Assembly (NCBI GenBank): GCA_041500865.1
Contig: JBGQMY010000013.1
Span: forward strand, 1 to 31,826
Reading direction: 5' to 3'
Origin: Candidatus Micrarchaeia archaeon
Lineage (GTDB): Archaea; Micrarchaeota; Micrarchaeia; Anstonellales; J096
DNA length: 31,826 bases
The notes below the pieces were generated by a model. It had not been told where the DNA came from. It searched no databases and was given only the letters and a program-made list of their open reading frames with translations. Shown in pieces: positions 148-31,795 of the stretch; the stretch's first letter is position 1; every line of letters starts with the position of its first letter. Both the position numbers and the translations under genes were made by a program.

Positions 148-549
148 CTAGACCCAGCCGACGCATTCCCCGAAAACGGATATGAAATGGTTGAAGTCCC
201 GCCTGTCCATTGATTCGCGGGCGAATTTCAGGAAGCGCAGGAATGGCTTGTTTTTCCTTTTCACGGCCGAGTGATTTGCATAATCTGTCACCTTGCGGCC
301 GGTTCCGTCTGTCTGGTCGATGTTTGCGCCCCTCCTGATGAGCATGACAAAGGTCCTTTTGTCCCCTGTGTATGCCACGTTGAACAGCGGGGTCCAGCCA
401 TTGCCTGGCTCATACTCCAGCTGGGCGCCCATGTCCAGCAGTTTCTCGACCCTTTGCGTTTTAAATTTCCAGGAGTGGATGATGAGCATGTCATTAAGCC
501 GCTTTTGGTCCCGTTCGCCTAATGGTTTTTTCAGCTGCAGCTGTGCCAT
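148..549 (-). CDS. Small ankyrin-repeat protein with C-terminal FxxxFxxC tag
   Basis: GWTPLFNVAYTGD..LIRRGANIDQTD ankyrin consensus; ends FISVFGECVGWV; ATG 549 fits TATA at 574-580. Confidence 0.85.
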   Translation of the reverse strand: MAQLQLKKPLGERDQKRLNDMLIIHSWKFKTQRVEKLLDMGAQLEYEPGNGWTPLFNVAYTGDKRTFVMLIRRGANIDQTDGTGRKVTDYANHSAVKRKNKPFLRFLKFARESMDRRDFNHFISVFGECVGWV

Positions 550-604
550 GTTTCTGTTTATGGACAAAAAGGATTAAAAATCAGACAGTGCCAGCCTTGG
601 AGGC

Positions 605-1174
605 TCATTCCCTCACAAAGCCGAACCTTTTCCCTTTCGCAGTCATCTTTACAAAATGGTTTAGGCTTTTCCTGAACATGTCTTCGCCATGGCGCCTCCT
701 GTCCTCAATGTACGCAATCCGTATCCGCTTGTAGCTTTCCGGAAGTTTCTGGAAGCGCGCCCACGCTTTCTTGTCTTTTCTTATTGCATTGATTATCCTT
801 TTTGGAAACACGAACTTCTCATCCGCCTTGAAGGCGTGCGAAACCGCGCCAAGCCCAGCCTTTGTCATTTGCTTTTCTAGAATCATCTTTCTTATTCTCT
901 CCTTGTTCGTCTGCGAAAGCCCGCTGTTGCGCCTTCTTGGCGAAAATCTCTGGGCGAACATCTCATCATCCACCTTTTTCACTATGCTGTCTATCCACCC
1001 AAAGCACAGCGCCTCTTCCACAGCGTCGTTATATGGTATCCTCGGCTTGCCTGATGATTTCCTATAATAAATGAGCCAGATTTCCTTTTCCTTTGCGTAG
1101 TTTTTTGCAAGCCACGCGCGCCAGGCTTTCCTGTTGGCCGTATAAAACGTCTTTCCCAGCTTCATTTCCGGCAT
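605..1174 (-). CDS. YdeI/OmdA-like family protein
   Basis: WRAWLAKN..EIWLIYY, YNDAVEEALCFGWIDS, QRFSPRR, FQKLPESYKR motifs; ATG 1174 fits TATA at 1197-1203. Confidence 0.85.
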   Translation of the reverse strand: MPEMKLGKTFYTANRKAWRAWLAKNYAKEKEIWLIYYRKSSGKPRIPYNDAVEEALCFGWIDSIVKKVDDEMFAQRFSPRRRNSGLSQTNKERIRKMILEKQMTKAGLGAVSHAFKADEKFVFPKRIINAIRKDKKAWARFQKLPESYKRIRIAYIEDRRRHGEDMFRKSLNHFVKMTAKGKRFGFVRE

Positions 1175-1203
1175 GATTCTGTTGTGCGGCAAGGGATTAA
1201 AAA
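1175..1203 (-). promoter_or_regulatory. TATA promoter module TTTTTAATCCCTTGCCGCACAACAGAATC-ATG
   Basis: Same TGCCGCACAA core as the ankyrin promoters at 118-127 and 31026-31035. Confidence 0.7.
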
Positions 1204-1791
1204 TCAGGCTGTGCAGTCGGCAAAGGATGCCAGGAACAAGATGAACATTTCCTTTCCTGTCAAATCCTGCAATAGCGGCATGGATTTGAGGAACTGCGCG
1301 GTTTTAACGCTGGAAAAATCCATGGCTGTATTGCCCCGGTCGTCTTTTGCGGAAATTAATTTCTGTATGTCTCCGCCGGCTTCTGCGTATTCCTGAATTA
1401 GCATGACACAGATTTGGGTGTGCCCCATCTGTGCGGCCTCGCATAGGGCGGCCCTGCCGAGGTCGTCTTTTGCGGAAATTAATTTCTGTATGTCTCCGCC
1501 GGATTTTGCGTATTCCTGTATCAGCAGGGCACATGTTTGGGAATATTCCCTGTTTGCGACCCAGTGCAGAGCGGTGGCGCCGCCATTGCCCTTTGCCGTG
1601 ATATCTGCGCCTTTCTTGATAAGCCGCATTATCTTTTCATTGTTGCCATGCAGCGCGGCGCTAATTAGCGAATCATTGAGCATCTCCTGCTCTTTTTCTG
1701 ACAATTTCGGCTTCTCGGGCTTCGGCTTGTGGAATAGGATTCTCTTTGCTTTGGCGAATGCCTCCCTTACCTTGCTTTTCCTCTTTTCCAT
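1204..1791 (-). CDS. Ankyrin-repeat protein with 41-aa repeats and C-terminal FxxxFxxC tag
   Basis: GATALHW, GRAALCEAAQMGH, GNTAMDF; ends FLASFADCTA; ATG 1791 (the ORF-track extension overlaps rli). Confidence 0.85.
   Translation of the reverse strand: MEKRKSKVREAFAKAKRILFHKPKPEKPKLSEKEQEMLNDSLISAALHGNNEKIMRLIKKGADITAKGNGGATALHWVANREYSQTCALLIQEYAKSGGDIQKLISAKDDLGRAALCEAAQMGHTQICVMLIQEYAEAGGDIQKLISAKDDRGNTAMDFSSVKTAQFLKSMPLLQDLTGKEMFILFLASFADCTA
1338..1525. repeat. 123-bp-period internal duplication in the ankyrin gene
   Basis: 42 identical nt at 1338-1379 and 1461-1502; EYA.SGGDIQKLISAKDD-like segment twice. Confidence 0.9.
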
Positions 1792-1846
1792 CAATATAGA
1801 TTGTGAGAAGAAGATATTAAAAGCATGACAGCCAAAAGCTGGGCAT

Positions 1847-3604
1847 ATGGCAAAGGTTACTACGCCAGTAAAGCGGCTGGCGATACTGGACAGGGATGCA
1901 TGCACAAGGGACAAGACAGGCTACGTGTGCGTAAAGGTCTGCCCTATCAACAGGACAAGGGACAAGTGCATAACCATAGACGAGGAAACGAAATATCCGC
2001 TGATAAGCGACGAAAGGTGCATTGGCTGCGGAATCTGCGTGAAGAAATGCCCGAACGGCGCCATCTACATCATAAACCTGTCAAAGGACCTCGGGGAGCC
2101 CATCTACTCGTACGGACCCAATATGTTCAGGCTTTACGGCCTTCCGATACCGAAGAAAGGCTCGGTTATCGGGCTGATTGGCAAGAACGGCATAGGGAAG
2201 ACAACCGCAATACGGTTGCTTTCAAAGCAGATAAAGCCCAATTTCAGCGAAGAAAAGGATTTCTCTTGGGAAGAAATCTACAAAAGGTCGTCCATGGACG
2301 TTAAGAATTACCTGTCGTCCATAGCCGGAGAGCACAACGTCTCCATAAAGCCGCAGGACATAGAGAAGATAAGGGAGCGGAAGGTCCATGTCAAGGGACT
2401 GTTAAAGGCAGTCGGACTCGGAAATGAAACGCTGATAAAATTCGGACTTGAGGAAATCGCGGAAAGGAAGGTGGACGAGCTTAGCGGCGGCGAACTGCAG
2501 AAGCTGAGCCTGGCGATAACCATAAGCAAAAAAGCCGACATCTATTACATAGACGAATTGACCAACTATCTGGACATAGGCGAAAGGCTTAGGCTGTCAG
2601 TCATGCTCAAGGAGTTCGGGGAGAAGAACAGCCTCATAGTGGTTGACCATGACCTGACTGTAATTGACTACCTTGTTGATTATGTCTACATTTTCTTTGG
2701 CGAGGAGGGCGCATACGGCGCAGTCAGCGGCCTCAAGGCTGCAAGGACCGGCATAAACGAGTATCTGGAAGGCTTCCTTAGGGCTGAAAACCTGAAAATA
2801 AGGGACTTTGAAATCCAATTCTCAAAGTTCAGCCAAAGCGAGGAAAGGGCGCCCGTGTTTTTCAAATATCCGGAACTGGCAAGGGACTTCGGTCCCTTTA
2901 AACTGACTGTTGATGCAAGCGAAATCAGGGAAAAGGAAGTGATTGGAATTGTCGGCGGCAACGCCCTTGGCAAGACGACGTTCATGAGGATGCTGGCAGG
3001 CGTGGAAAAGCCGGATTCCGGAATCGTTGAGGAAGGCAGGAAGATAGCGTACAAGAGGCAGTACCTTGAAGCGGGCAAGGAAAGGGTGAATGACATCCTG
3101 TCAAAAGGCGACCCGTACATCGTGGAACTGTCAAGGAGGCTTTTGAGCATACCTGCAAACCTGCTTGAAAGGAGGCTTGACCAGTTGAGCGGCGGGCAAT
3201 TGCAAAAAGTGAGCATAGCGCACACGCTCTCGCTGGACGCAGGCATTTACCTTTTGGACGAGCCGAGCGCCTTCCTTGACGTCGAGCAGAGGATAGCGTT
3301 CTGCCACCTGATATCGGATTTTGTTGAATACAGGAAGAAGCCGGTCTTCATAATAGACCACGACATAAACCTCATTGACAGGGTGTCAAACAGGCTGATG
3401 CTGTTTTCAGGCACAAAGGCGAAGGAAGGCCATGGAAGCGCGGCAATGGGAAAACGCGAAGGCATGAACGCGTTCCTCAAGACCATGGACATAACGGTCA
3501 GGCGGGACGTGGACACGTACAGGCCAAGGATAAACAAGCCAGGCAGCGCTCTGGACCGGGAGCAGAGGCAGAAAGGCGAGTACTACTTCTCAAGCGAGAG
3601 ATAA
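1847..3604 (+). CDS. rli: ABCE1/RLI ribosome recycling ATPase
   Basis: N-terminal Fe-S domain (CIGCGICVKKCP), YGPNMFRLYGLP, two Walker A motifs (GKNGIGKTT, GGNALGKTT), two LSGG signatures, YRPRINKPGS..DREQRQKGEYYF. Confidence 0.97.
   Translation: MAKVTTPVKRLAILDRDACTRDKTGYVCVKVCPINRTRDKCITIDEETKYPLISDERCIGCGICVKKCPNGAIYIINLSKDLGEPIYSYGPNMFRLYGLPIPKKGSVIGLIGKNGIGKTTAIRLLSKQIKPNFSEEKDFSWEEIYKRSSMDVKNYLSSIAGEHNVSIKPQDIEKIRERKVHVKGLLKAVGLGNETLIKFGLEEIAERKVDELSGGELQKLSLAITISKKADIYYIDELTNYLDIGERLRLSVMLKEFGEKNSLIVVDHDLTVIDYLVDYVYIFFGEEGAYGAVSGLKAARTGINEYLEGFLRAENLKIRDFEIQFSKFSQSEERAPVFFKYPELARDFGPFKLTVDASEIREKEVIGIVGGNALGKTTFMRMLAGVEKPDSGIVEEGRKIAYKRQYLEAGKERVNDILSKGDPYIVELSRRLLSIPANLLERRLDQLSGGQLQKVSIAHTLSLDAGIYLLDEPSAFLDVEQRIAFCHLISDFVEYRKKPVFIIDHDINLIDRVSNRLMLFSGTKAKEGHGSAAMGKREGMNAFLKTMDITVRRDVDTYRPRINKPGSALDREQRQKGEYYFSSER
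3558..3595 (+). repeat. rli 3'-end segment, duplicated at 5031-5068
   Basis: gggagcagaggcagaaaggcgagtactacttctcaagc vs gggaatagaggcagaaaggggaatactacgtctcaagc (33/38). Confidence 0.85.
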
Positions 3605-4088
3605 TCAGGAGGCAATGCGCTCACTGAAGGGTTTCATGAAAGAGTTAAATGTTTCTTTTCCCATCCAATCCTGAAATGTTGGCATGGATTTAAGGAACTG
3701 GGTGATTTTTGTGTGGCTTTTCCGTAAGGCATAATAAAGGGCTGTTCTGTCATTATTATCAGTTGCGTTAATCAATTTCATTATGTCCCCACCAGCTTTT
3801 GCGTATTCAATTATAAGTAAACTGCATGTTTTTTGTGTGTCCGTTGTATGCAATCCATTGCAGGGCTGTAGCGCCTTTATCAGTCTGTGCGGCTATATCC
3901 GCACCTATTTTGATGAGCCTTATTATTTTCGCGTTGTCGCCATTCTCTGCGGCAGTTAAGAGCGCATCATTGAGCCGCTTCTGTTCCTTTGCGGACAATA
4001 CCGACTTTTCGCTTTGCTCGATGTCAACTTTGGTCTTAGCTATTTTTCTTGCCTGCGCATTCCCTTGGAACTGCTTCCTTTCCTGCAT
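3605..4088 (-). pseudogene. Frameshifted ankyrin-repeat gene
   Basis: ORFs 3807-4088 and 3605-3853 join if one base is removed from the T6 run at 3829-3834 (giving GHTKTCSLL); tag Cys replaced by Arg (FMKPFSER). Confidence 0.8.
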
Positions 4089-4134
4089 ATTCCTATTATG
4101 CTCCAAAGGTGTTAAAAACTCTGCTGGAATATCC

Positions 4135-4173
4135 TGCCCCCTAAATGTTTAAAAATGCTTGCCCCCTAAATGT
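4135..4173 (+). promoter_or_regulatory. Two 14-bp direct repeats flanking the Fic TATA box (putative operator)
   Basis: TGCCCCCTAAATGT at 4135-4148 and 4160-4173 around TTTAAAAA. Confidence 0.65.
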
Positions 4174-4177
4174 CATC

Positions 4178-5038
4178 ATGGGCAGTTACATTGAAAAAAA
4201 GGTCATTAAAGGCAGGATATACTATTACCTGACTGAAAACAAATATTCAAACGGAAAATGGAAAAAAACAAGGAAATACCTGGGAATCGCAACCCCATCC
4301 GGGTTTGAGAAACCGACAAGAAAGAACCCAAAGCCGATTCTTGGCAAAAATGAATTAAAGGTCATTGAAAACATCAGGAAAAATTACCTGAAGTTCCATC
4401 ATCTGGACGCCAGGATATGGAAAGAGGAGCGCGAACGGTTCGTCAGTTTCATATTCAACACAAACGCAATAGAAGGCAACCCGATAACGCTTGAGGACAC
4501 CGACACCGTTCTTCGCGGCGGGAAAATCAGGGCGAAGGAAAAGGACGTGCGCGAAATAAACAACATGAAAAGATGCGTAGACTTCATTTTCAATTATTCT
4601 GGAAAGATTGACGAAAAGCTTGTTCTGAAGCTGCATAAAATGCAGATGGAAAACGTGCTGCCTGAATCCGGACAATATAGAAAAGTGGATGTCAGCGTCG
4701 GAAGGTATGTCTGCCCCCCATGGCAGGAGCTGCCCAAGCTGATGAAGAGGTTTTTTGCCTGGATAAATGAAGCAGAAAAGAACACTTCAGTTTTTGAGTT
4801 TGCATGCCTAATCCACTTAAAATTCGTAAGGATACACCCTTTCAGGGACGGGAACGGCAGGATGGCAAGGCTGCTGCTGAACCTTGCGCTATTGAGGAAG
4901 GGCTACCCCCTTATTAACATCTTCAATGACGAGAAACTGCTTTATTACCTTGTGCTGAGGAAAGTTGACGCGACAAAGAGGCCGAAATCCTTTGTGGAAT
5001 ACCTTTTCGGCACTTATGCCAGCCAATACAGGGAATAG
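4178..5038 (+). CDS. Fic family protein with N-terminal putative DNA-binding module
   Basis: Canonical HPFRDGNGRMAR; inhibitory (S/T)xxxE(G/N) motif TNAIEG; N-terminal KGRIYYYL..NGKWKK..KYLG. Confidence 0.92.
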   Translation: MGSYIEKKVIKGRIYYYLTENKYSNGKWKKTRKYLGIATPSGFEKPTRKNPKPILGKNELKVIENIRKNYLKFHHLDARIWKEERERFVSFIFNTNAIEGNPITLEDTDTVLRGGKIRAKEKDVREINNMKRCVDFIFNYSGKIDEKLVLKLHKMQMENVLPESGQYRKVDVSVGRYVCPPWQELPKLMKRFFAWINEAEKNTSVFEFACLIHLKFVRIHPFRDGNGRMARLLLNLALLRKGYPLINIFNDEKLLYYLVLRKVDATKRPKSFVEYLFGTYASQYRE

Positions 5039-5068
5039 AGGCAGAAAGGGGAATACTACGTCTCAAGC
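5031..5068 (+). repeat. Relic copy of the rli 3' end
   Basis: Reads RE*RQKGEYYVSS in the rli frame. Confidence 0.85.
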
Positions 5069-5112: not shown

Positions 5113-5736
5113 ATGAAGCTGAGATTTTCCTCAAAGCCGGCCCGGAAGCCCGTAATGAATAAGGCTACAGCCGATTTGCTGGAGGAAATCGAAAAGGATG
5201 CCAGAAAAGAGGCAAGGCGCGGAATAGCGGATGTGGAGGGATTCACAAAATCCAAGGATGCCGCAGCGGCTGTCGGGCGTTTCCTCGCCCAATCCGCCCA
5301 TGCAACGATTAACTGCCATTACATCAGGGCAATTGCCAAGCAAACGCATTCCGGGGAAGCGGTGGTGGGGGCGATTAAGGCAGCAGCCAGGCACAAAAAG
5401 AATGACCAGCATGTGCTTGACGCACTATCCGACATGGGCATGGAAGACGCCAAAGACGTGATACGCTGTTCAAAGCTATTCAAGAGAATAAGCGGCCGCC
5501 GTTTCAAAATAAGAGTATTGGCTCGGTGGTTCATGGACATCTTGTACAGAACAGGCTCAGGAAAGGTGGCTTACAAGACCCTGAATACGCTCATGAACTG
5601 CGAACTGCAAAAAATAGACCGCATCAGGGAAGGCATGCTGCTCGGATTCATCGCAACTCTGCATATTATGGATGACAAAAACGCCCGCAACGGCTTCCAG
5701 ATCGATTTCTTAAGGTGCGCTTTCCCGCATCAGTAG
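5113..5736 (+). CDS. Hypothetical helical-repeat protein with C-terminal FxxxFxxC tag
   Basis: ATG 5113 fits TATA at 5083-5088; IAKQTHSGEAVV motif shared with 15918-16910; ends FQIDFLRCAFPHQ. Confidence 0.65.
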   Translation: MKLRFSSKPARKPVMNKATADLLEEIEKDARKEARRGIADVEGFTKSKDAAAAVGRFLAQSAHATINCHYIRAIAKQTHSGEAVVGAIKAAARHKKNDQHVLDALSDMGMEDAKDVIRCSKLFKRISGRRFKIRVLARWFMDILYRTGSGKVAYKTLNTLMNCELQKIDRIREGMLLGFIATLHIMDDKNARNGFQIDFLRCAFPHQ

Positions 5737-9365: not shown

Positions 9366-9602
9366 ATGGTCCAGGCGGTAATCAACATAGACGAGGAAAC
9401 AAACAGGCTGTTGAACATAGTCAAGGCGAAGTATGGGCTTAAGGACAAATCCGATGCGATAAACCTTGTGACTCAGGAATATGGCTCCCTCATACTGGAG
9501 CCTGCCCTAAGGCCGGAATACGAGAAAAGGCTGAAGAGGATAAAGAAGGGAAAATTCGTAAAGGTGAATGACTTTGCAAAAAGGTATGGGCTGGAAAAAT
9601 GA
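9366..9602 (+). CDS. Antitoxin (DUF2683-like)
   Basis: MVQAVINIDEETNRLLNIVKAKYGLKDKSDAIN..EPALRPEY; ATGA overlap with the toxin. Confidence 0.8.
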   Translation: MVQAVINIDEETNRLLNIVKAKYGLKDKSDAINLVTQEYGSLILEPALRPEYEKRLKRIKKGKFVKVNDFAKRYGLEK

Positions 9603-9865
9603 GCTATTCCCTTGAGCTATCCAAGCAGATAGACATGAAATTCAAGAAACTAAGCAAAAAACAGCCCAAGAAAATGGAGATAATAGAAAAGAAAACAAGG
9701 CAGATAATTGAGGACCCTTACCGCTTCAAGCCATTGAGGGGGCGCATGCACGGCATAAGGAGGGTCCATATAGACAAATCCTTTGTGCTTATCTACGAAA
9801 TAGACGAGCAAAGGAAGTCCGTAAGGTTGCTTGATTTTGAGCACCACGACAAAGTATACGTTTAA
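9599..9865 (+). CDS. RelE/StbE/YafQ-family toxin
   Basis: PYRFKPLRG...RRVHI..SFVLIYEI...LLDFEHHDKVY. Confidence 0.88.
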   Translation: MSYSLELSKQIDMKFKKLSKKQPKKMEIIEKKTRQIIEDPYRFKPLRGRMHGIRRVHIDKSFVLIYEIDEQRKSVRLLDFEHHDKVYV

Positions 9866-10288: not shown

Positions 10289-10963
10289 TCATGCGACGCA
10301 TTCCCTGAAGCTCAGCATGAACAAATCGAAACTCTCTTCCCCTATCGCTTTTTTGAAATTCTCTATTGTTAGCTTTGACAGAAACGCAACTGTGTCTTTT
10401 TCATTATTTTCTTTGGCATATGCCAGCGCGGTCTTGCCATAGATGTCCGATTCGCCGATGTTTGCGCCTTTTCCAATCAATAAAGAGCATGTCTTGGTGT
10501 CTCCCTTCCATGCGGCCCTCATGAGCGCAGTCCTGCCTTTATTGTCTCTTATGTTTATTTCTGCGCCCTTTTCCAGTATTAGGGAGATTACGCGCCTGTC
10601 CCCATGCTGTATGGCCGCCATCATGGCAGTCTCGCCATGGATGTTCCGCGCATTGGCATCGGCGCCGCGCTTCAGCAGTGCCTTGGCTATCTTATAATGC
10701 CCGCCAAATGCGGCAAACATCAACGGAGTTTTGCCGTATTTGTTTTTTGCGCTTGGGTTTGCGCCAGCTTTCAGCAGGCGCATTATGTCTGTAGCAGGAA
10801 ACGTCTCATCCAGTATCCTTTCGCATACGTCACAAAGCCCCTTGTCCAGATATTCCTGCATTGACCTGTCTATCTCAATGTCGGGATTGGGCTTGCTGCG
10901 GCTGAAGAATGTGATTACCTTGTTTCGCATTTTCCTGATTGGCTCTTTATGCGCAAGCCGCAT
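10289..10963 (-). CDS. Ankyrin-repeat protein with C-terminal FxxxFxxC tag
   Basis: GKTPLMFAA, GETAMMAA, GRTALMRAA, GKTALAYA; ends FMLSFRECVA. Confidence 0.93.
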   Translation of the reverse strand: MRLAHKEPIRKMRNKVITFFSRSKPNPDIEIDRSMQEYLDKGLCDVCERILDETFPATDIMRLLKAGANPSAKNKYGKTPLMFAAFGGHYKIAKALLKRGADANARNIHGETAMMAAIQHGDRRVISLILEKGAEINIRDNKGRTALMRAAWKGDTKTCSLLIGKGANIGESDIYGKTALAYAKENNEKDTVAFLSKLTIENFKKAIGEESFDLFMLSFRECVA

Positions 10964-11021: not shown

Positions 11022-11714
11022 TCAGGCGACGCATTCCCTGAAGCCGTGCATGAACAGGTTGAGACCTTTCTTCCCCATTATGCTTTCAAATATTCTTGTT
11101 TCCGCCCTTGACAGCAACGCCTCTGTTTTAGGTTGCTTGTTCCTGATGGCAAGCATCCTTGCGGTCCTTCTGTAACTGTCAAATGCATTGGGGCTGGCGC
11201 CATTGTCCAGCAGCAGCTTGCATATTTTGGTGCGGCCGCGTTCCGCAGCAAGCATGAGCGCGGTCTTGTTGCATTCAGCCAGCATGTTCACGTCGGCCCC
11301 TTTTGCAACCAGGGCCTTGACTGTGCGCGGATGGCCTCGCTGCGCCGCAAGCATGAGCGCAGTCATTTTGTGGTTGTCCTGCGCATCAATCTCCGCGCCC
11401 AGCGCAAGCATGGCATTTACGATTTTGCGGTCTCCTCCCCATGCGGCGATAATCAGCGGGGTCATGCCGTCGCTGTCCTTTGCATTTGGGTTTGCGCCGG
11501 CGTTCAGCAGGCGCATTATTTTTTTAGTGTCGCTCATATTTGATTTGGTATCATTATACTTCACGATATTGTAGCATTCATCTACAAGCGCCTTGTCTAG
11601 GTCTTTCTGCTTTGGCTTTCTGATTATAATATCCAGGTCTGGCTTGCTGCGGCTGAAGAATGTGGCTATTTTGTTGCGCATTTTCCTGAATTGCCCCTTT
11701 TGCATAAGCTGCAT
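11022..11714 (-). CDS. Ankyrin-repeat protein, tandem paralog of 10289-10963
   Basis: GMTPLIIAA, TALMLAA twice; shared RKMRNK..TFFSRSKP leader; ends FMHGFRECVA; ATG 11714 fits TATA. Confidence 0.93.
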   Translation of the reverse strand: MQLMQKGQFRKMRNKIATFFSRSKPDLDIIIRKPKQKDLDKALVDECYNIVKYNDTKSNMSDTKKIMRLLNAGANPNAKDSDGMTPLIIAAWGGDRKIVNAMLALGAEIDAQDNHKMTALMLAAQRGHPRTVKALVAKGADVNMLAECNKTALMLAAERGRTKICKLLLDNGASPNAFDSYRRTARMLAIRNKQPKTEALLSRAETRIFESIMGKKGLNLFMHGFRECVA

Positions 11715-11805
11715 GGCCTGATTGTGCATAAAAGAGGTTAAAAATGCTGTTGGTTGGGCATGCTGCGCCATCATTGTTTTAATACTTGCTTCAGATTACC
11801 TTTTC

Positions 11806-13535: not shown

Positions 13536-14102
13536 TTATTGGCTTATGCAGTCCCGGAAGCTGAAATAGAAAGAGTTTGACGCTTTTTTGCTGGCAAAAA
13601 GCCCTGGCGGGATGTTTGTTGCGAATTTGAGGAATGCGATTGTATCTTTTTTATGGGATGACTTGGAAAAATCAAATGCGGTTTGTTGCATGTCGGTTTT
13701 TGCATATATGCTGGCGCCTTTCTCGATTAGGATGGCGCAGGTTTCGGTGTGTCCGCGTCCTGCGGCATACATGAGCGCAGTCCTGCCGTAGTAATCCTTT
13801 GCATCTATGTTTGCTCCATTGTCAATCAGCAGGGCGCAGGTTTCTATGTGCCCTAGCCATGCGGCATTCGTGAGCGCGGCCTGGCCGTATCTCAGAGCCT
13901 TTGGGTTCACGTCTGCCTCGGCCTTCAGCAGCCTTTTGATTTTTGCATTGTCGCCTTTGTCGGCTGCGCCCAAAAGCATTTTGTTAAGACACTCCCGCTC
14001 TGCCCAGCTGGGTTTCCTTTTCTCTGTTTCGGGCTTGCGGCCGGATATTTTTGGCTGTTCGGCCGCTTTCTTCTCCCTAGACAGCCTCTTTTCCTTGGCC
14101 AT
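13536..14102 (-). CDS. Ankyrin-repeat protein with C-terminal FxxxFxxC tag
   Basis: GQAALTNAAWLGH, GRTALMYAAGRGH; ends FYFSFRDCISQ; ATG 14102 fits TATA. Confidence 0.92.
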   Translation of the reverse strand: MAKEKRLSREKKAAEQPKISGRKPETEKRKPSWAERECLNKMLLGAADKGDNAKIKRLLKAEADVNPKALRYGQAALTNAAWLGHIETCALLIDNGANIDAKDYYGRTALMYAAGRGHTETCAILIEKGASIYAKTDMQQTAFDFSKSSHKKDTIAFLKFATNIPPGLFASKKASNSFYFSFRDCISQ

Positions 14103-15917: not shown

Positions 15918-16910
15918 TTATAAGACACAGTCCGCGAACTCCCTGAAAAAGGTCTCGTGAATTTCTCCGAGCAGTTTTTCGCATGATTTTGCGGCATCGC
16001 GCAGGCCGATGTCATATAGGTTGTTGGGTATTACGTCGCCAGCCTGTATCCCAAACTGGCACAGCAGGAGAATCATCAGCCTGTCATTTATTTTACCTTT
16101 CGTGATGTGGTCCTTTATGAGGCCTGTCCAGCGCACTACTTCCTCGCCAGAGCGCGTCGCCCTTGCCACTTTCGCAATGCCAAGACGGACGTATGGCGGT
16201 ATGCCTGGAACAGGGAAAAGGAAAAACTCGGCTCCCAGGCTTATGCATCCCCACATTGCCGGCTTTGAGCGTGTGTAAGAGGCAATCTCCAGAAGGAAGG
16301 GGCTGTCTTCAACCATTGCCATCACTTCCTCGTCGCGCAGGAATGCAGCCGTGCGCATGACAACGTCTTTCGGCTTTTCAGCGAAATTGTAAGGAAGAAT
16401 TACACTGAAAAGCATGCCAGCGACGTTTGCTGCGCCATCGCCCTCGTATAAAGAGGCTGTTTCGGCGCATGAGATTGTGGCGTCAACGGACTTTGTGTAG
16501 TGCGCAATATGGGATATGGATTTCAGCGTTTCCTCAATATGTATTTTGGGCATATGTGTTTTTGCGGCTTGCATTGCCGCCTTTGCAGCGGCAACTGTGG
16601 CAGCGCCTGAACCTTTTGCTTCCCTGTGAACGTCAAGAAGGGCGCGGATTATGGGGGCATCCATGAGGTTATTGGACATTACCTGCTCTCTAAGAGTCAG
16701 CGGGCAGATTGCTTTCTTTGCCAGCAATACGATGTCCTGCATTTCAATTTGCCTGCCGTCGCTGTATTTTGCCCCATAATCCTGGATTACTGAAAACGGG
16801 TCATCCTGCGCAGGCATTGGCGCATTCTTGGGAGCCCTAAATTTCGGCATCAGCGCTAAAGCTACTCTTTTGAAGATGTTTTTCTTGGCTGCAGGCTTTT
16901 CCTTCTGCAT
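15918..16910 (-). CDS. Hypothetical helical-repeat protein with basic leader and C-terminal FxxxFxxC tag
   Basis: Recurrent IAxxTxS motif (IAHYTKS, IASYTRS, VARATRS); ends FFREFADCVL. Confidence 0.7.
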   Translation of the reverse strand: MQKEKPAAKKNIFKRVALALMPKFRAPKNAPMPAQDDPFSVIQDYGAKYSDGRQIEMQDIVLLAKKAICPLTLREQVMSNNLMDAPIIRALLDVHREAKGSGAATVAAAKAAMQAAKTHMPKIHIEETLKSISHIAHYTKSVDATISCAETASLYEGDGAANVAGMLFSVILPYNFAEKPKDVVMRTAAFLRDEEVMAMVEDSPFLLEIASYTRSKPAMWGCISLGAEFFLFPVPGIPPYVRLGIAKVARATRSGEEVVRWTGLIKDHITKGKINDRLMILLLCQFGIQAGDVIPNNLYDIGLRDAAKSCEKLLGEIHETFFREFADCVL

Positions 16911-16940: not shown

Positions 16941-19418
16941 TCAATATGGATAGACTATTGCCTTGTGCCACACGCCGTAGATTTTCTCGCCGCACTTGGG
17001 ACACTTGCCTTCCGGAGTTACGTCAAAGAAGTTCACGTTGAACGAGTCCCTTCCGACAAGGAGCGCGTTGCATTTCGGGCAGTGCGTGTCCTCTCCGCCA
17101 GGCACGTATGCGTTCCCTATGTAGATGTACCTTAGCCCCGCTTTCTTTCCGATGTTTCTTGCCTTTATCAGCGTTTCAACTGGCGTCACTGGCTTGTCAG
17201 CCATCTTGTAGTCGGGGTGGAACTGCGTGACATGCCAAGGTATGTTTTTGTCAATGCCTGCTATGAACTCCGCCATGCCGTTCAACTGCTCGTCGCTGTC
17301 GTTCTCGCCAGGTATGACCAGCGTGACGATTTCAAGGTGCTTGCCCCTTTTGTACACGGATTTTATGGTGTCAAGGACGTTTGAAAGCTTCGTGCCGCAG
17401 TTCCTTGCATAAAAGTCTTCAGTGAATCCTTTCAGGTCTATCTTGTACGTGTCAATGTGCTTCAGGTAATCAAGGGCCTCCTCTGACTCATATCCTGACG
17501 ATATGAACGCGTTGGAAAGGCCTTCCGACGCCGCGAGCTTCGCTATGTCCTCCGCGTACTCGGCCCATATCGCGGGCTCGTTGTAGGTGTATGCTATGCC
17601 ATCGGCCTTGTACTGCAGCGCCAGCTTCACCGCCATCTCAGGGGGAAGCGTGTTGGATTTCTGCTGTATGAGGTTCCTTGCGTTGTCCGCCTCCTTGCCT
17701 GCCTCCTGTTTTGGAAACTGGCTCATCTCCCAGTTCTGGCAGTTGCAGACTGCGATGAAATTAGCCAGGTAAGAATGCTCATTGTCCACTTCGCAATTAT
17801 ATACAAGTCCCGCATATTTTTTACGCTGTGTCGTGAATACCGGCACAAGCCAATGGGTGTCGGTTTCCCGGAACATCAGGCTCCTTTCGCTTTTCTTCCG
17901 CGGCTCATATTCCGTATTACCAAGGAAATGCTCCCTGAATTTTTCAGCAGTGAGCTTGACATAATACAAAGTTGACTGGTTGACTGTCCTGCCCTCAATT
18001 CTCTTTTTGGCAGGCGGCTGCCATTCATAAAAGCTCGGAAGATATCCCAGAAGCAGCAGAAGATGATATATCCCAAGAGCCAGCTTTTTGGAAACCGTGT
18101 TGAACGCTATTTTGTCCTTCAGCACGCAGCCGTCCCCTGCCAGATACGCATCCATGAAGGATTTTATCACCCTTTGCCCAGAGCGCGCCACTTCGGAAGG
18201 CACTTTCTTGTTTTTTGCCCTCTCGCCGCACAGGCTCTTGAACAGAATGCCGATAGAGGATTTTGACACCTCAACCGAGAGTGCCGTCCGTCTCATGACC
18301 ATTTTTGGTTTTGCCTGGAATATCTGCTCAAGCAGTCCAGCCGTGCGGCGCGCCAGATTCCCTTCATGTCTGCCATATGAAAAAACGACGTTGAAAGAGG
18401 ATGGCCTGTTTTGACACGCTGCAGTATGGCCCTCTGCGCAGTAATATCCAAGCAACTCCGCCAGGTCTTCGTCAAGCGGAATCAGGGCGGGTATGCCATC
18501 CCCTTTCTCCATCTTGAATCTGACACGCTTTCCGCTACGCACAACTTTGTTCTCGTAGACAAAGGTAGATTCGCCGATTCCGTCCCTTTTCAGTTTGCCA
18601 AGCAGTTTCCTCAGATAAACTGGGTGCATGCAAAGCATTGCCCCGATTTCCCTCGACGTTTTGCCTGCTTTATTGAGGCCTATCAGCCGCCTAAGACCGG
18701 CCTCATCCAGCTTCCTCCCTTTTTTAATCTTTGAAACGCCTTTTGCAAGGATTCCGCAGCAGTCCAGCACAACCTTCCTGTTTTTTGGTTTCAACTTTGG
18801 GACTGCCAGATAATCGCCTTTTTTCAGCGTATATGCAGGCACATTTTCAAATCTTCCTTCCCGCCACACAAAAAACCTGTGTTCTGGCGTGCAGGTTACT
18901 GGAGGCACATGCCTCGGCTTTATTGTGAGTATGTCGCCTTCATAGTTGTGCCTGAATACCTTTGCCACGGTTTCCCGCTCCCCGGACGCCGTTACCGTTT
19001 TCCTGTCCCCGGCAATGGCAATCTCGCCATGGGCATTTGCCATCTTCTCATCACAGGTTTCGAAGACTTCGTGAAGGCTCTTTATGGAATCGTCATTTAT
19101 GATGGTGGCATCTTCTGTAAAACAGAACGAGCACCTGAAGTTGCAGCCGTATGTCCCTATTGAGAAAAGCATTGTGCCAGGGTTATGGTGAAAAAGCGGC
19201 TTTTTCTCCACTGGGTCCATGTTGACCGCAGCCGGGCGCCCATAGACATATGAATATAATTTTCCGCCCTCGTTTCCCCTTGTGGAGCAGATGCCGACCC
19301 TTCCCTCGGGTATAGCGCAGTAATGCTTGCATGCAAGGCATTTCAGCGTATCGCCCTTCAGCTTTTCGTAGAGCACCGCTTCCTTCCCCGACTCGGAGAC
19401 TATCCTTGTCCTTGCCAT
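16941..19418 (-). CDS. amrS: AmmeMemoRadiSam system radical SAM enzyme, intein-containing
   Basis: CLACKHYC, DPVEKKPLFH, GCNFRCSF|..|CQNWEMSQ, IAYTYNEP, WHVTQFHPDYK, YIYIGN. Confidence 0.93.
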   Translation of the reverse strand: MARTRIVSESGKEAVLYEKLKGDTLKCLACKHYCAIPEGRVGICSTRGNEGGKLYSYVYGRPAAVNMDPVEKKPLFHHNPGTMLFSIGTYGCNFRCSFCFTEDATIINDDSIKSLHEVFETCDEKMANAHGEIAIAGDRKTVTASGERETVAKVFRHNYEGDILTIKPRHVPPVTCTPEHRFFVWREGRFENVPAYTLKKGDYLAVPKLKPKNRKVVLDCCGILAKGVSKIKKGRKLDEAGLRRLIGLNKAGKTSREIGAMLCMHPVYLRKLLGKLKRDGIGESTFVYENKVVRSGKRVRFKMEKGDGIPALIPLDEDLAELLGYYCAEGHTAACQNRPSSFNVVFSYGRHEGNLARRTAGLLEQIFQAKPKMVMRRTALSVEVSKSSIGILFKSLCGERAKNKKVPSEVARSGQRVIKSFMDAYLAGDGCVLKDKIAFNTVSKKLALGIYHLLLLLGYLPSFYEWQPPAKKRIEGRTVNQSTLYYVKLTAEKFREHFLGNTEYEPRKKSERSLMFRETDTHWLVPVFTTQRKKYAGLVYNCEVDNEHSYLANFIAVCNCQNWEMSQFPKQEAGKEADNARNLIQQKSNTLPPEMAVKLALQYKADGIAYTYNEPAIWAEYAEDIAKLAASEGLSNAFISSGYESEEALDYLKHIDTYKIDLKGFTEDFYARNCGTKLSNVLDTIKSVYKRGKHLEIVTLVIPGENDSDEQLNGMAEFIAGIDKNIPWHVTQFHPDYKMADKPVTPVETLIKARNIGKKAGLRYIYIGNAYVPGGEDTHCPKCNALLVGRDSFNVNFFDVTPEGKCPKCGEKIYGVWHKAIVYPY
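17742..19124 (-). mobile_element. Intein with LAGLIDADG homing endonuclease (461 aa)
   Basis: Starts CFTEDA; block B TCTPEHRF; LLGYYCAEG and AYLAGDG; ends VYNCEVDNEHSYLANFIAVCN before extein Cys. Confidence 0.93.
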
Positions 19419-19431: not shown

Positions 19432-19989
19432 CTATGAGCCGCTCCCGTTGGATTCTATTACCGTAATGTCCCTGGACATGCACTCGACTGCGCTTAAGCA
19501 TCCGTTCTCCATCGTGGCATTCAGCCTCTGGTAGTTGGCCCCGCACTCGTCCGCCAGGCCGTTTATCAGCACATCCGGTATGTCCTGGCATCCCGGTCCC
19601 TGCATCTTTGATATGTCATATGCAACCCGCTCCGAGGCGTTCATGCACTTGTAGGCTGTCGTGCAGTTCCAGACGTCCTTGACTTCTATCATCGCCTTGG
19701 ACAGGCTTGCGCAATTGCCGTATTCCGCCTGGCTTGGCGCGCTTATCGGGGTGCACTGCCCCGGCAGCGAAACGTTGCCCGTCGCGTTCTGCGGCGTGAT
19801 GTCCTGCGTGGCATTGGCCTCCGGGGTGCTGTTTGCAATTGCGTTGGTCTGGTTCGCAACAGATATGTTTTCCTGCACGCCCTGCGATGAGTTGTTCGCC
19901 CCGATGTCGGTCACGGTGCCGGAGCCGCCTACGCATCCACATGACAGGACCAATGCTGCAACGATGAGGATTAGGGTTTCCCTTGCCAT
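19432..19989 (-). CDS. Putative surface lipoprotein with Cys-rich domain
   Basis: Hydrophobic signal ending LSCGC; NxS/T-rich linker; Cys-rich C-terminal domain. Confidence 0.7.
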   Translation of the reverse strand: MARETLILIVAALVLSCGCVGGSGTVTDIGANNSSQGVQENISVANQTNAIANSTPEANATQDITPQNATGNVSLPGQCTPISAPSQAEYGNCASLSKAMIEVKDVWNCTTAYKCMNASERVAYDISKMQGPGCQDIPDVLINGLADECGANYQRLNATMENGCLSAVECMSRDITVIESNGSGS

Positions 19990-20026
19990 GCCAGTCTTTC
20001 AAAAAGGAAGTTTAAAAAAGTATGGA

Positions 20027-20614
20027 TTACTGCGTTGACCTCACGAACGTGCCGATGGAGGTGCAGTTTATGCTTATGGATTTTGCGCATGTGCTGCCGT
20101 TGACATAGGCGTACGTGGAATTGACAATCACTTTAACATTATCATACTCCGCGCCGCACATGTTCGCTGTAGCGTAGATGACGTCATCCGTTATCACCGG
20201 AGGGCATATCCTGTCCTGGATGCTTATCCTGGAAAGGTCATACCTTACCCTGGACACTGCGTCCATGCACCTGTACTCCGTCGTGCAGTTGGCTGCATCC
20301 TTTATTTGGACGTATGTGCTGACGTTCTTCTTGCACACGGCCTGCTGCTCTGCTGAAGGCGGTGCAACGTATGCGCATTGGGCGGCAGAATTGTTGGCCG
20401 TCTGGTTAATAGCTGGTTGGCTATTGTTCTGCGCCGGCGTTGCGTTGGTGGATGCATTGCTGACAGTCGGAGAAGGCTGCTGGCCCGAGACGTTCGGCGC
20501 AGTTGAGATTATGTGCCCGCCGCTGGCGTTGGCTGCTGCCCCTCCTTGGGATACGCATCCTGCGAAAATAACCAGTGCGATGAGCACCGCTGAAACCAGA
20601 ATAGTCTTGTACAT
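20027..20614 (-). CDS. Putative surface lipoprotein, paralog of 19432-19989
   Basis: Signal ending FAGC; KDAANCTTEYRCM..RVRYDLS vs KDVWNCTTAYKCM..RVAYDIS. Confidence 0.72.
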   Translation of the reverse strand: MYKTILVSAVLIALVIFAGCVSQGGAAANASGGHIISTAPNVSGQQPSPTVSNASTNATPAQNNSQPAINQTANNSAAQCAYVAPPSAEQQAVCKKNVSTYVQIKDAANCTTEYRCMDAVSRVRYDLSRISIQDRICPPVITDDVIYATANMCGAEYDNVKVIVNSTYAYVNGSTCAKSISINCTSIGTFVRSTQ

Positions 20615-26850: not shown

Positions 26851-26851
26851 G

Positions 26852-27361: not shown

Positions 27362-27362
27362 C

Positions 27363-28453: not shown

Positions 28454-28468
28454 TTGGCTCCGCGTTTT

Positions 28469-29104
28469 TCATTGCCTTTGATACGGCGCCTGGTCTGCAA
28501 GCCTATTCGCTTTGGCGGCAAGCCCTGCATCGCCTGCCTTTTCATAGCATAAGGCGGCTGCCCTGTGCCTTTCCAGCTTTGAGAACAAAAGGCCAGCTTC
28601 CATGAACCGCCCTGCCTTTTTGTAATATTCGGCGGCATAGCTGGAAAAGCCCTTTGACGCGCAGAAATCGCCGATTTTGGAGCTTGCGTCCTTTGCAGGC
28701 ATTTTTGACTTCAGGAGGTTCTGCTCAGCATCATGGAATTTGTTCAGGTTTAGGCATATCCCGGCTGCTGCGGAAAAGTCCTTGAGCGCCAGCGCAACCA
28801 TGAGCCACTGCTCGGTGCTTTCAATGCCCCTGTTTTTCTTGGCATTGTCGTACGCCATGGCAAGCTCGGACATTAGGGCGGCTTTTGCGGTGTCGCCTAT
28901 GCGGTTGCCGCCCAGCTTGCCCATTATCTCCATTGTGCCAAGCCCGCCGAAGTCACTTTTGGATGCGCCGAAAAGCTCGGCCAACTCATCGCCTTCGCCA
29001 ACGTCATCGTGCAGCGGCTCGGCGTTCTTTATCGCCTTTTTGCTCTTGTTCAGTCTGCTCTTTTTGGGCCTGCCCCCTTTTTTTGAAGCGGCGAACATCA
29101 TCAT
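28469..29104 (-). CDS. TPR/SNAP-like repeat protein with N-terminal GGRPKK
   Basis: AAEYYKKAG..AG, AALCYEKAGD; ATG overlaps the stop of the upstream gene. Confidence 0.65.
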   Translation of the reverse strand: MMMFAASKKGGRPKKSRLNKSKKAIKNAEPLHDDVGEGDELAELFGASKSDFGGLGTMEIMGKLGGNRIGDTAKAALMSELAMAYDNAKKNRGIESTEQWLMVALALKDFSAAAGICLNLNKFHDAEQNLLKSKMPAKDASSKIGDFCASKGFSSYAAEYYKKAGRFMEAGLLFSKLERHRAAALCYEKAGDAGLAAKANRLADQAPYQRQ

Positions 29105-29889
29105 ATCATCCTTCGCGATGCGCCGCTGTTCGCTGCCGCAAGCCCCTTCTCTCTTTTCTTCATTTTGTTTGCAATGCCGAAGTGCCCGCACTTGGTAAAC
29201 ATGAGCGCCGCAGTCCCGTACCTGCCTTCCCTCTCCGCCTTTTCGGCTGCCATAAGATACGCCTTTTCTGCCAGGTCCTGCCTCTTGGCCTTGTCAAACG
29301 CCTCGGCGGCCTGCTTGTACTCGCAGACGTTCATGTAGGCATGGCCCGCCCTTTCCCATTCCCACGCCATCTTGAAGCGGAACGCGGCTGACGAGAACAG
29401 GCGCAGGTCCTCATACCTTTGCGCTGCCCTGTGCCATTCCATTCTGGCATTCCTGATGTTGCCAATGTCATCGGCCGCCTGGGCCTTTTTTTCTATTTCG
29501 CGTATCGCTTCCATCTCTTCCTTTAATTGCGAATCCGGCCCGTCCGGGTCCCTGACTTTACGTGCCGGCGCGCCCTCGCAAGTTGTTCCTTCATCAGTTT
29601 CTGTTAAGGGATCATTATCATCCAAAACCGGCTGCGGTTCGGGAGCATTTTTCGGGATATCGCCCTCAACTCTGTCCTTGTATTGCTCCATCAGAATCGC
29701 AGGCGGCCTGCCCCTTCCGCTGTATCCTGGCCTGTCTTTCCATGTCTTCGTTCCAGCAGTCGGTGGCTTCGGCTTTTCCATCCCCCATCTTACAAGCAGC
29801 TCATGCGGCGGCCTTCCCCTTCCGCTGTATCCTGCTTTGCCTTTAAACTTGCAGACATATGCGCTTTTCCTTTCTGTTGTGGCTGCCAT
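29101..29889 (-). CDS. TPR/SNAP-like repeat protein with two GYSGRGRPP motifs
   Basis: AAQRYE, AAEAFDKA, AALMFTKCG repeats; motif repeated 35 aa apart. Confidence 0.7.
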   Translation of the reverse strand: MAATTERKSAYVCKFKGKAGYSGRGRPPHELLVRWGMEKPKPPTAGTKTWKDRPGYSGRGRPPAILMEQYKDRVEGDIPKNAPEPQPVLDDNDPLTETDEGTTCEGAPARKVRDPDGPDSQLKEEMEAIREIEKKAQAADDIGNIRNARMEWHRAAQRYEDLRLFSSAAFRFKMAWEWERAGHAYMNVCEYKQAAEAFDKAKRQDLAEKAYLMAAEKAEREGRYGTAALMFTKCGHFGIANKMKKREKGLAAANSGASRRMI

Positions 29890-29904
29890 CTTGTCTCACC
29901 GCGC

Positions 29905-30513
29905 CTAACCGCCACGCTTCCTGAACCTTGGCAAAGGCAGCAAACAGCCGTTTCCAAGCTTTTGCGCCAGCCTCAGCTTTCTGTCTTTCTCCCTTTCTGC
30001 CCTCATCTTTTCTGCCGCAGCCAGCCTTGCCTCAGCCTTTTCCTTTACGCGCTGCGCCCTTTCACCGCGCCCTGCTTTATTGTAGACGTGATGCGCAAGG
30101 CCGAGATCCTTAGACCTTTCTGCCTTCTCGCCGGCCATGCTGTATGCCCTTACTGCCTTTTTCCTGTCCTTTGCGCTCTCAAAGCACCTTCCTGCTGAAA
30201 AATACTCCTTGCAGCGCATGAACGCGTTGGCCGCTTCCGGGAACATCTTCGCCTTCCTGAAAAAGCCGCCTGCAAGGCGGAATGCCTCCCTGGAAATGTA
30301 GATGCGCCCTATCCCTGCGTAAATCGCCTCTGCCTCCGTGTCTTTTCCGCGATGATGCAGCTCATCCGCCTTCGCAATCATCTGCATAATTGTTGGCTTT
30401 TGCGACTCGTCAAAAAGCTCGTGCTGCGCCGTTCTCCTCTTTCCGGCGTCCTTCCTTATGAGGTGATTCCGCAAGCTGGCCGCTGCCACCTTAATCTCCA
30501 TTGACCTGAACAT
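29905..30513 (-). CDS. TPR/SNAP-like repeat protein
   Basis: AGGFFRKA, AANAFMRC, AGRCFESA, AHHVYNKAG repeats; TATA at 30539-30546. Confidence 0.7.
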   Translation of the reverse strand: MFRSMEIKVAAASLRNHLIRKDAGKRRTAQHELFDESQKPTIMQMIAKADELHHRGKDTEAEAIYAGIGRIYISREAFRLAGGFFRKAKMFPEAANAFMRCKEYFSAGRCFESAKDRKKAVRAYSMAGEKAERSKDLGLAHHVYNKAGRGERAQRVKEKAEARLAAAEKMRAEREKDRKLRLAQKLGNGCLLPLPRFRKRGG

Positions 30514-30559
30514 GGAGTTTTTTTTGTGTTCAAAAGGGTTTTTAAATGTGTGTGCAAAG

Positions 30560-30664
30560 CCCCTTTCTTTCCTAAGGGAACCAAGGTTCCCTTGAGGCTC
30601 AACCTTCCTTTTTTATGGCTCCGCGGAAAGAAAACTGTCTTTGCTTTCACCTCAAAAGAAACTA
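30560..30664. repeat. Hairpin-containing intergenic element related to 10146-10288
   Basis: AAGGGAACC/GGTTCCCTT stem; GGCTCCGCGGA; TTCACCTCAAAAGAAACTA vs TTCACCCCAAAAGAAACTA (10194-10212). Confidence 0.6.
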
Positions 30665-31018
30665 CTATTGGCCTGTGCATTCCCTGAGCAATGAGACGAA
30701 TAGTCTGCCGGGCTCCTTTCCAAGAAGCGCGCGGGCACCGGCCTCTGCAAGGAGCTGCGCTATTTCTGTGTTTTTGTTTTCCACGGCACGCGTGAGCGGA
30801 GTCCAGCCGTCATTGTCCTTTACGTCGATGCTTGCGCCAACATTTAGCAATCTCTCCGCTCTTTTTGTTTTGCCGTTTCCAGCAGCATCCAATAGCATGC
30901 CATTGAGCTGTTTCTGCTTTTTCTCTGATAATGCCTTCTTTTGGCTTTCTATTATGCCAGCTTTGGGTTTGGCTGGCGCCTTTGCCGGAATGTTATTCTG
31001 GAGCCTCTTTTCCTGCAT
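30665..31018 (-). CDS. Short ankyrin protein with C-terminal tag
   Basis: GKTKRAERLLNVGASID, GWTPLTRA; ends FVSLLRECTGQ; ATG 31018 fits TATA. Confidence 0.85.
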   Translation of the reverse strand: MQEKRLQNNIPAKAPAKPKAGIIESQKKALSEKKQKQLNGMLLDAAGNGKTKRAERLLNVGASIDVKDNDGWTPLTRAVENKNTEIAQLLAEAGARALLGKEPGRLFVSLLRECTGQ

Positions 31019-31048
31019 GCCTCTATTGTGCGGCAAAGGTGTTAAAAA
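31019..31048 (-). promoter_or_regulatory. TATA promoter module TTTTTAACACCTTTGCCGCACAATAGAGGC-ATG
   Basis: One mismatch to 111-140; directly follows the TGA of the upstream gene. Confidence 0.72.
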
Positions 31049-31795
31049 TCAGGCAGCAACGCAGTCGCCGAACGGTTTCATGAACGCATTTCCAGTTATG
31101 CCGGCAAGCCATTCCATGGACCTGAGGAATGCGGCTGTTTCTTTGTTGTTCCATTTTATGGCAATCATGAGCGCAGTCCTGCCGTCATTGTCCTTTGCGT
31201 CGATGCTTGCGCCTTTTTCGAGCAGTAAAGCGCAGGTTGGGGTGCGTCCATACATTGTGGCATACATGAGCGCGGTCCAGCCGTAGTTGTCCTTTGCCTC
31301 GATGCTTGCGTTGTGTTCAAGCAGTAAAGCGCAGGTTGGGGTGTGTCCCCAATATGCGGCATACATGAGCGCGGTCCAGCCGAGGTTGTCCTTTGCGTCG
31401 ATGCTTGCGCCTTTTTCAAGCAGGAATTCGCAGGTTTGGGCGTGTCCGTTCCATGCGGCCCGCATGAGCGCAGTCCTGCCGTCATTGTCCTTTGCCTCGA
31501 TGCTTGCGCCTTTTTCAAGCAGTAAAGCGCAGGTTTGGGTGTGTCCGTTCCATGCGGCCCACATGAGCGCAGTCCTGCCGTCATTGTCCTTTGCCTCGAT
31601 GCTTGCGCCAACTTTTAACAATCTTTCCGCTCTTTTTGTTTTGCCGTTTTCAGCGGCATCCAGCAGCTTGTTGTTGAGCCGCTCCTGCTCTTCTGTAGAC
31701 AATGCCAGCTTCTCGCTTTTTGCGATGTCTGGCTTTTTCTGTTTTGGCCTTATCCTTTCCATCATCCGCCTTAGGAGCGGCTTCCTTTCCTGCAT
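31049..31795 (-). CDS. Ankyrin-repeat protein with near-identical repeats and C-terminal tag
   Basis: Five KDNxGxTALM units; ends FMKPFGDCVAA. Confidence 0.95.
   Translation of the reverse strand: MQERKPLLRRMMERIRPKQKKPDIAKSEKLALSTEEQERLNNKLLDAAENGKTKRAERLLKVGASIEAKDNDGRTALMWAAWNGHTQTCALLLEKGASIEAKDNDGRTALMRAAWNGHAQTCEFLLEKGASIDAKDNLGWTALMYAAYWGHTPTCALLLEHNASIEAKDNYGWTALMYATMYGRTPTCALLLEKGASIDAKDNDGRTALMIAIKWNNKETAAFLRSMEWLAGITGNAFMKPFGDCVAA
31166..31609. repeat. 99-bp tandem repeat (about 4.5 units) encoding ankyrin repeats
   Basis: CATGAGCGC recurs at 31166, 31265, 31364, 31463 and 31562. Confidence 0.95.

Follow-up and report, generated by a model that had tools for sequence, protein, structure and literature searches.

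A constant Phe-Phe-Cys tail on the ankyrin proteins of one Micrarchaeia genus: a candidate docking helix

Introduction

Very large families of ankyrin-repeat proteins are carried by several small host-dependent genomes, among them those of TM6/Dependentiae, Wolbachia and Orientia, and the signals of type IV secretion effectors are defined by a positively charged C-terminus. Poxvirus ANK/BC proteins end in a short box whose Leu and Cys are required and which can be transferred to an ANK-only protein, as described in the available text of one study (PMC6232478). The ways in which DPANN archaea affect their hosts are poorly known, and hardly any candidate effectors have been put forward. We describe here a C-terminal tail, F-x3-F-x2-C, that is common to a large ankyrin family of a DPANN archaeon, Candidatus Micrarchaeia archaeon (assembly GCA_041500865.1), and that ends several genes of contig JBGQMY010000013.1. 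We refer to the whole stretch analyzed, positions 1 to 31,826 of this contig, as the window.

Results

The tail proves to be a genuine C-terminal module, so far undescribed and specific to one genus, that is carried by roughly a tenth of the proteins of a DPANN archaeon. The window is an entire contig (C13) of a 1.04-Mb genome that is 92% complete, here called G000, which together with G001 and G002 represents one genus (completeness 77-92%). For the ABCE1 protein of G000, the nearest named records belong to Micrarchaeia/Micrarchaeota metagenome-assembled genomes. A simple purpose-made gene caller gave 1,058 genes in G000, and 95 of these (~9%) end in F-x3-F-x2-C-[VIT]-[AGS]-x0-3. A purpose-made ankyrin profile identified 121 open reading frames (ORFs) in the same genome, 118 of them complete, with the strict ending F-x3-F-x2-C-x2-5 present in 87 of the 118 and a looser form in 96. 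Uncalled shadow ORFs have the motif ending in only 14 of 18,290 cases. The 99 tailed ORFs are spread over 70 separate sites on 22 contigs.

Tail-profile matches among 61 relatives numbered 100 in G000, 27 in G001 and 40 in G002, with two weak matches at most in each of nine others. Within 401 members of the class, real matches were found in these three genomes only; a match in G301, located outside any ankyrin gene, is spurious. The profile matched 134 of 1.84 billion protein representatives, 28 of them identical to G000 proteins, comprising 130 ankyrins, two short C-terminal fragments, a 79-residue remnant and one spurious internal match. Because this search required ~35 bits and used a profile that extends into the last ankyrin helix, it is blind to weak tails on other folds. 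An Atlas search with residues 165-224 of the ankyrin encoded at 10289 in the window returned ankyrin clusters only. The motif had not been recognized as a described one in an earlier, sequence-only reading of the window, and we likewise found no match to the tail among Pfam, NCBIfam and PDB sequences. No NCBIfam model matches more than one of 75 tails, and none of the 75 matches the Pfam SOCS-box, F-box or PRANC models. The accessible literature on ankyrins in Micrarchaeota, Micrarchaeia and DPANN and on C-terminal motifs of archaeal ankyrins holds no description of the tail within a scope that excluded subscription journals, and supplementary family tables could list the family; the word "ankyrin" is absent from the main text of PMC8204110.

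The tail is highly constrained. Across 98 tails, the first Phe is present in 97 and the second in 93, Glu or Asp precedes the Cys in 72, and the Cys is followed by Val, Ile, Thr or Leu in 92 and then by Ala, Gly or Ser in 83. Counted from the C-terminus, the Cys lies at -3 in 21 tails, -4 in 59, -5 in 11, -6 in four and further from the end in three. Among 236 tails selected by the motif, the Phe, Phe and Cys are kept at 98%, 95% and 100%, with the columns between the start of the last repeat and the tail reaching at most 85%. As a control for circularity, we aligned the tails of 205 complete ankyrin ORFs from the three genomes by a profile ending before the Cys. This scored 146 ORFs, whereas the other 59 either have no tail or diverge too far, and 144 of the 146 retain the Cys. 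One exception is a misregister of a Cys-bearing protein; the other, the sole true loss, is the window's frameshifted pseudogene at 3605. Buried Cys residues within the repeats, by comparison, are retained in 61% of repeats.

At the two Phe positions, TTC and TTT are used at 76:21 and 74:19 (5941:2389 in the genome), and at the tail Cys, TGC and TGT are used at 91:7 (2499:275 in the genome). Since these codons match genome usage, selection acts on the protein, and a DNA-level cause of the Phe-Phe-Cys pattern, such as promoter overlap, is rejected. A TATA-like box abuts 34 of the 99 tagged genes. The 99 tailed ORFs stop at TGA (56), TAG (22) or TAA (21). Reading through the stop would lengthen them by a median of 18 codons; the short end is therefore neither an accident of downstream stops nor a product of promoter overlap.

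Judging from the sequence, the two Phe, the Cys and the next residue, at i, i+4, i+7 and i+8, would share one helix face. An AlphaFold model of the 10289 protein, built from 66 alignment rows, has a mean predicted local distance difference test (pLDDT) score of 91 and shows an extended last ankyrin helix at residues 189-207, a Gly kink and a predicted tail helix at 209-223 with pLDDT 95-97; both Foldseek and VIA gave matches to the ankyrin fold. A homodimer prediction with two copies of residues 33-224 scored 0.00, which gives no verdict and no evidence either way, and tail-repeat covariation was uninformative, the top pairs being artefacts of invariant columns. In charge the tail is close to neutral (-1 to +1 net in 61 of 82 tagged proteins), no signal or membrane helix passed the hydropathy cut-off in any of the 82, and the N-terminal leader of tagged proteins is basic (median +4 versus +1). 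The three lipobox ankyrins that we saw are all tail-less. Tagged ankyrins have from 1 to 11 repeats, with a median core identity between paralogues of 36%, and the spacing from the last repeat to the Cys is variable, mostly 39-48, with a recurring 4-residue indel. The 79-residue library protein has kept the tail on what are apparently cap helices only.

Within one genus the module has expanded along with a single ankyrin family, and at least once it has been transferred to an unrelated helical-repeat protein. The literal motif ends two of the 926 non-ankyrin genes of G000, where 0.08 are expected, and both lie within the window. The sequence-only reading had counted both among ten carriers, eight ankyrin and two non-ankyrin, and had taken the tag for a portable module rather than an ankyrin cap. 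The first of the two, at 15918..16910 (-), encodes a helical-repeat protein with a genuine tail at 15918-15950 (Cys codon 15927-15929, at -3). It ranks top of the 926 by position matrix, at 15.5 bits with the next at 3.0, and when only the 15 non-defining columns are considered it falls in the top 0.6% of background. Three homologues, 56-62% identical, all have the tail with the Cys at -3; across the four sequences, 10 of the last 13 positions are invariant, compared with 124 of 330 overall, and the family's tail aligns in register with the tail profile (E-value 0.0009). The protein is predicted, at low confidence, to be a non-ankyrin helical solenoid (mean pLDDT 62, tail 37). A fold search with it gave nothing above background (best Z 7.0, root-mean-square deviation 4.5, 149 aligned), and an Atlas search gave no match.

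The second, at 5113..5736 (+), is an orphan protein with the literal motif at 5695-5736 and the Cys at -6. It scores at background (-1.9 bits; 44th percentile on the non-defining columns) and is not counted as a carrier. Its single homologue also has the motif, which carries little weight at 81% identity, and the motif is probably a chance match, with a degenerate copy as the alternative. Comparison of the 5113 and 15918 profiles (E-value 0.008, probability 4.8%) does not show homology, and neither protein has a homologue among 60 relatives. Of the earlier proposal, the eight ankyrins and 15918 therefore stand as carriers and 5113 does not. Portability holds at least once, for the 15918 family (4 of 4 sequences), and not every paralogue requires the tail as an ankyrin cap, but the remaining carriers are all ankyrins, and diverse cargo was found neither genome-wide nor among the 1.84 billion proteins.

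The tail is missing from 43 of 203 complete ankyrin ORFs of the three genomes. Some of these are broken tagged genes; others are intact with ordinary caps, and the intact ones have reciprocal cross-genome counterparts in G000 and G002. Isolated or stop-broken relics of the tail lie at four sites in G000 (C1:17378-17521, C17:984-1124, C2:2611-2718 and C12:12162-12263) and point to a fast turnover of genes within the family. At C3:51460-53597 of G000, two adjoining non-ankyrin genes with a common C-terminal D-P-R-M motif stand beside three tail-less ankyrin genes.

Other relatives are also rich in ankyrins, with 72 Pfam ankyrin matches in G008, 58 in G050 and 42 in G020. In the ~841 kb of G008 that were covered, a different helical tail of 60-80 residues ends 17 of the 31 complete ankyrin ORFs (for example L023, L028 and L117). 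Its invariant L-x2-C precedes [DNS]-K and another helix, and about 10-19 residues follow the Cys. This tail was found in one of the 401 genomes. In seven regions of G050 (L033-L038), 11 proteins end in a basic module that has a conserved R-x-P close to the C-terminus, and the ankyrins with this module mostly begin directly with repeats. Profile-profile comparison showed no homology of the F-x3-F-x2-C tail to the G008 tail (E-value 0.29) or the G050 tail (E-value 0.057), and reciprocal hidden Markov model searches between G000 and G008 stayed at background level. The hydrophobic-x3-hydrophobic-x2-Cys spacing common to the G000 and G008 tails may be convergent.

Within the window, the ten C-termini of the sequence-only reading were recovered in place and as quoted: eight exact F-x3-F-x2-C, a Leu at the second Phe in 30665, and an Arg for the Cys in the 3605 fragment. 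Pfam Ank repeats occur in eight of the ten genes, and 5113 and 15918 are without any Pfam match. By their sequences, nine of the ten are real carriers, one of the nine being dead. Scored with a profile trained on 84 tails, all from outside the window, the seven intact window ankyrins reach 23.6-37.8 bits. All seven are on the reverse strand: 148..567 (tail 148-186, Cys codon 163-165, at -5; 23.6 bits), 1204..1791 (tail 1204-1236, Cys 1213-1215, at -3; 31.1 bits), 10289..10963 (tail 10289-10321, Cys at -3; 37.8 bits), 11022..11774 (tail 11022-11054, Cys at -3; 36.1 bits), 13536..14102 (tail 13536-13571, Cys at -4; 28.1 bits), the short variant F-x3-L-x2-C ankyrin 30665..31018 (tail 30665-30700, Cys at -4; 25.5 bits) and 31049..31795 (tail 31049-31084, Cys at -4; 37.2 bits). 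The frameshifted ankyrin pseudogene, 3605..4088 (-), has its tail at 3605-3640 with the Arg at the Cys position (3617-3619), and a second public run confirmed its letters with 0 differences across 3500-4300. Half or more of a 7-kb stretch is present in two runs besides the possible source, both sediment metagenomes; the runs with a small share only (X4-X8) were left out in judging habitat.

Elsewhere in the window are a Fic-domain gene (4145-5038, +), a RelE/ParE-family toxin with a small gene upstream (9366-9865, +), a radical SAM gene with an intein and a LAGLIDADG domain (16941-19418, -), a tandem pair of Cys-rich lipoprotein-like genes that match nothing in Pfam (19432-20614, -), and three SNAP/TPR-like helical proteins in tandem, all with basic ends (28469-30513, -), within which an AT-hook-like G-R-G-R-P motif is repeated twice (29101-29889).

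Discussion

The reading that we favor, with a probability of roughly 0.4, is that the tail is a constant C-terminal docking helix that would be read by one shared partner across ~100 fast-diverging ankyrin paralogues per genome. Each protein has a basic N-terminal leader and 1-11 variable ankyrin repeats, followed by a predicted extended helix, a Gly kink and the predicted helix of the tail. With its Phe-Phe-Cys face and its free C-terminus, the tail would dock into a single protein partner common to all, so that the conserved face would be read in trans. The variable repeats may select different targets, which the tail may then hand over to a common machine, whether inside the archaeon or, after delivery, in the host. 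Counted in favor of docking are the invariance of the tail, selection at the protein level, a Cys that stands 3-6 residues before the C-terminus in 95 of 98 tails, the portability seen in 15918, the tail-less ankyrins, the variable spacing, and the separate tails of two ankyrin-rich relatives.

Several observations weigh against docking. Apart from one family, every carrier is an ankyrin from a single expansion, and common descent thus accounts for their having the tail. The model places the tail directly after the last repeat at pLDDT 95-97, as expected of a folded cap; several long ankyrin structures align through residue 224, which is also cap-like; and F194 and L195 of the preceding helix (73% and 83%) could be the tail's partners in cis. 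The 15918 tail scores 0.3 bits on the non-defining columns, at the bottom of the range (training minimum 0.4). No partner emerged, no neighboring gene recurs next to the tagged genes, and E2 was not found in the five genomes searched, where the control was also without a match anywhere.

Several of these observations would suit an inherited structural C-cap, which we consider unlikely but which is a serious alternative and the most probable of those considered. The tail helix would fold back on the extended last ankyrin helix, Phe, Phe and Cys would be core residues copied with each duplication, and 15918 would have captured a gene end as its own cap. Besides the confidently modeled tail helix and the long ankyrin structures that align through the tail region, this explanation draws on the confinement of the tail to one genus and on the library matches, 130 of 134 being ankyrins and three of the others short fragments or an ankyrin remnant. 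A cap does not sit well with a tail Cys that is far more invariant than the buried repeat Cys, with the existence of tail-less paralogues, with a linker that varies in length while the distance to the C-terminus is held, or with retention of the tail on the non-ankyrin fold of the 15918 family.

It is quite unlikely that the tail is instead a lipid anchor, with the Cys S-prenylated or S-acylated by a host enzyme or an unknown archaeal one and the amphipathic helix lying on the membrane. The Cys stands at -4 in 59 of 98 tails, tagged proteins offer no signal or membrane helix (0 of 82), and the lipobox ankyrins are tail-less. An ICMT-family gene is present in all three tagged genomes and absent from the rest of the 19 family members searched, but it also occurs in 16 tail-less genomes of the 61. 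A permissive yeast farnesyltransferase rule, as given in the available text of PMC10320760, is passed by 75 of 90 tails with the Cys at -4, and CaaX-type prenylation substrates both shorter and longer than canonical are described in the accessible part of PMC10541624. Yet the a2 position is aliphatic in only 1 of the 90 tails and Ala, Gly or Ser in 77, and the Cys is not at -4 in 39 of 98. PF00432 was not found in G000 (its control was also without a match anywhere), nor were PF01239 and Rce1 found in the three tagged genomes, which are 77-92% complete. The parallel once drawn with the CaaX box of AnkB fails on the a2 position and fits poorly with the variable place of the Cys. Further, the tail helix is not basic, the invariant Cys of G008 lies well inside the chain, no leucine-rich repeat proteins that would hint at a eukaryotic host were found, and membrane insertion does not need strict Phe. 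We prefer docking to lipidation because of the strict Phe, the neutral helix, the near absence of an aliphatic a2 and the failure to find a prenyltransferase or Rce1 in these incomplete genomes; a near-neutral, strictly Phe tail would suit a shaped pocket better than a bilayer. The ICMT-family gene of G000 at C6:40644-43910 (L136) lies beside a RuBisCO-like gene, the latter recognized by eye.

Least probable is an export or degradation signal, a free C-terminal helix read by a VirB4-like secretion ATPase or a protease that would route proteins into the host: G000 has a VirB4/TraG-like ATPase (C1:83633-85216), tagged proteins are without a Sec signal, the basic G050 tail recalls type IV signals, and effector secretion by VirB4-like ATPases is proposed for Nanohaloarchaeota in the available text of PMC10266531, but the ATPase is equally present in G008 and G050, which do not have this tail, the tail is neutral, only one non-ankyrin family is tagged where diverse cargo would be expected, and the basic N-terminal leader is an alternative export signal. 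The 527-amino-acid ATPase of G000 lies amid membrane-protein genes (C1:79969-86062, L124), and a like ATPase was found in five of five genomes searched.

More speculatively, and with doubt, docking could be extended to the relatives. Micrarchaeia lineages may have repeatedly built adaptor libraries of ~100 ankyrin receptors, and every lineage would have its particular constant box at the C-terminus (F-x3-F-x2-C in this genus, L-x2-C-[DN]-K for G008, a basic tail for G050). The box would couple host targets to one machine via a reactive Cys. Such libraries would be an archaeal counterpart of F-box/SOCS-box receptors and the first defined effector class of DPANN symbionts. One short constant module is in any case common to roughly a tenth of a 1-Mb genome, and it offers a single bait peptide with a built-in control, substitution of the Cys or Phe, as a possible route to a partner, a host or a machine. 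Should the tail prove to be nothing more than a cap, its interest would be modest, as a so far uncatalogued marker for an expansion of archaeal ankyrins.

Comparison with known systems

Like the host-dependent TM6/Dependentiae, Wolbachia and Orientia, this genome has a very large ankyrin family, but it belongs to an archaeon, and its lineage has constant tails that differ between related genera. Type IV effector signals have a positively charged C-terminus, unlike this tail with its net charge of -1 to +1 in most tagged proteins. The archaeal CGP-CTERM (TIGR04288) and PGF-CTERM tails are also common to many proteins of one genome, with a Cys in CGP-CTERM; in contrast to these archaeosortase-type signals, the tail has no transmembrane helix, basic end or N-terminal signal peptide, and NCBIfam models match at most one of 75 tails.

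The lipidated effectors of Legionella and Salmonella (CaaX prenylation of AnkB and SifA, palmitoylation of GobX and LpdA) resemble the tail in having a Cys within ~5 residues of the C-terminus and, in AnkB, ankyrin cargo, as set out in the accessible text of PMC4951486. The tail differs in its small a2 residue, a Cys that ranges from -3 to -6, the invariant upstream Phe pair, its ~100 copies per genome and the prenyltransferase and Rce1 that were not found.

The closest likeness is to the poxvirus ANK/BC and ANK/F-box (PRANC) proteins, which, according to the available text of PMC6232478, likewise join variable ankyrin repeats to a short constant C-terminal box in a large paralogue family. Cellular ASB proteins such as ASB7 (PDB 8y1u) have the same layout; a structural match to ASB7 (Z 22.5, root-mean-square deviation 3.9, 174 aligned) stems from the repeats and does not count as likeness to a SOCS-box. 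The BC consensus, [TSP]-L-x3-[CSA]-x3-hydrophobic, differs from the tail, whose -4 position is Ser, Asp, Ala or Pro and in which 95 of 98 chains end at most 5 residues past the Cys, and the F-box pattern, hydrophobic-P-x2-hydrophobic-x3-hydrophobic, has a Pro that is not conserved in the tail. The tail is archaeal, with no known eukaryotic host, and has only 2-5 residues after the Cys. It is like the poxvirus ANK/BC boxes in design, without being a member of their class.

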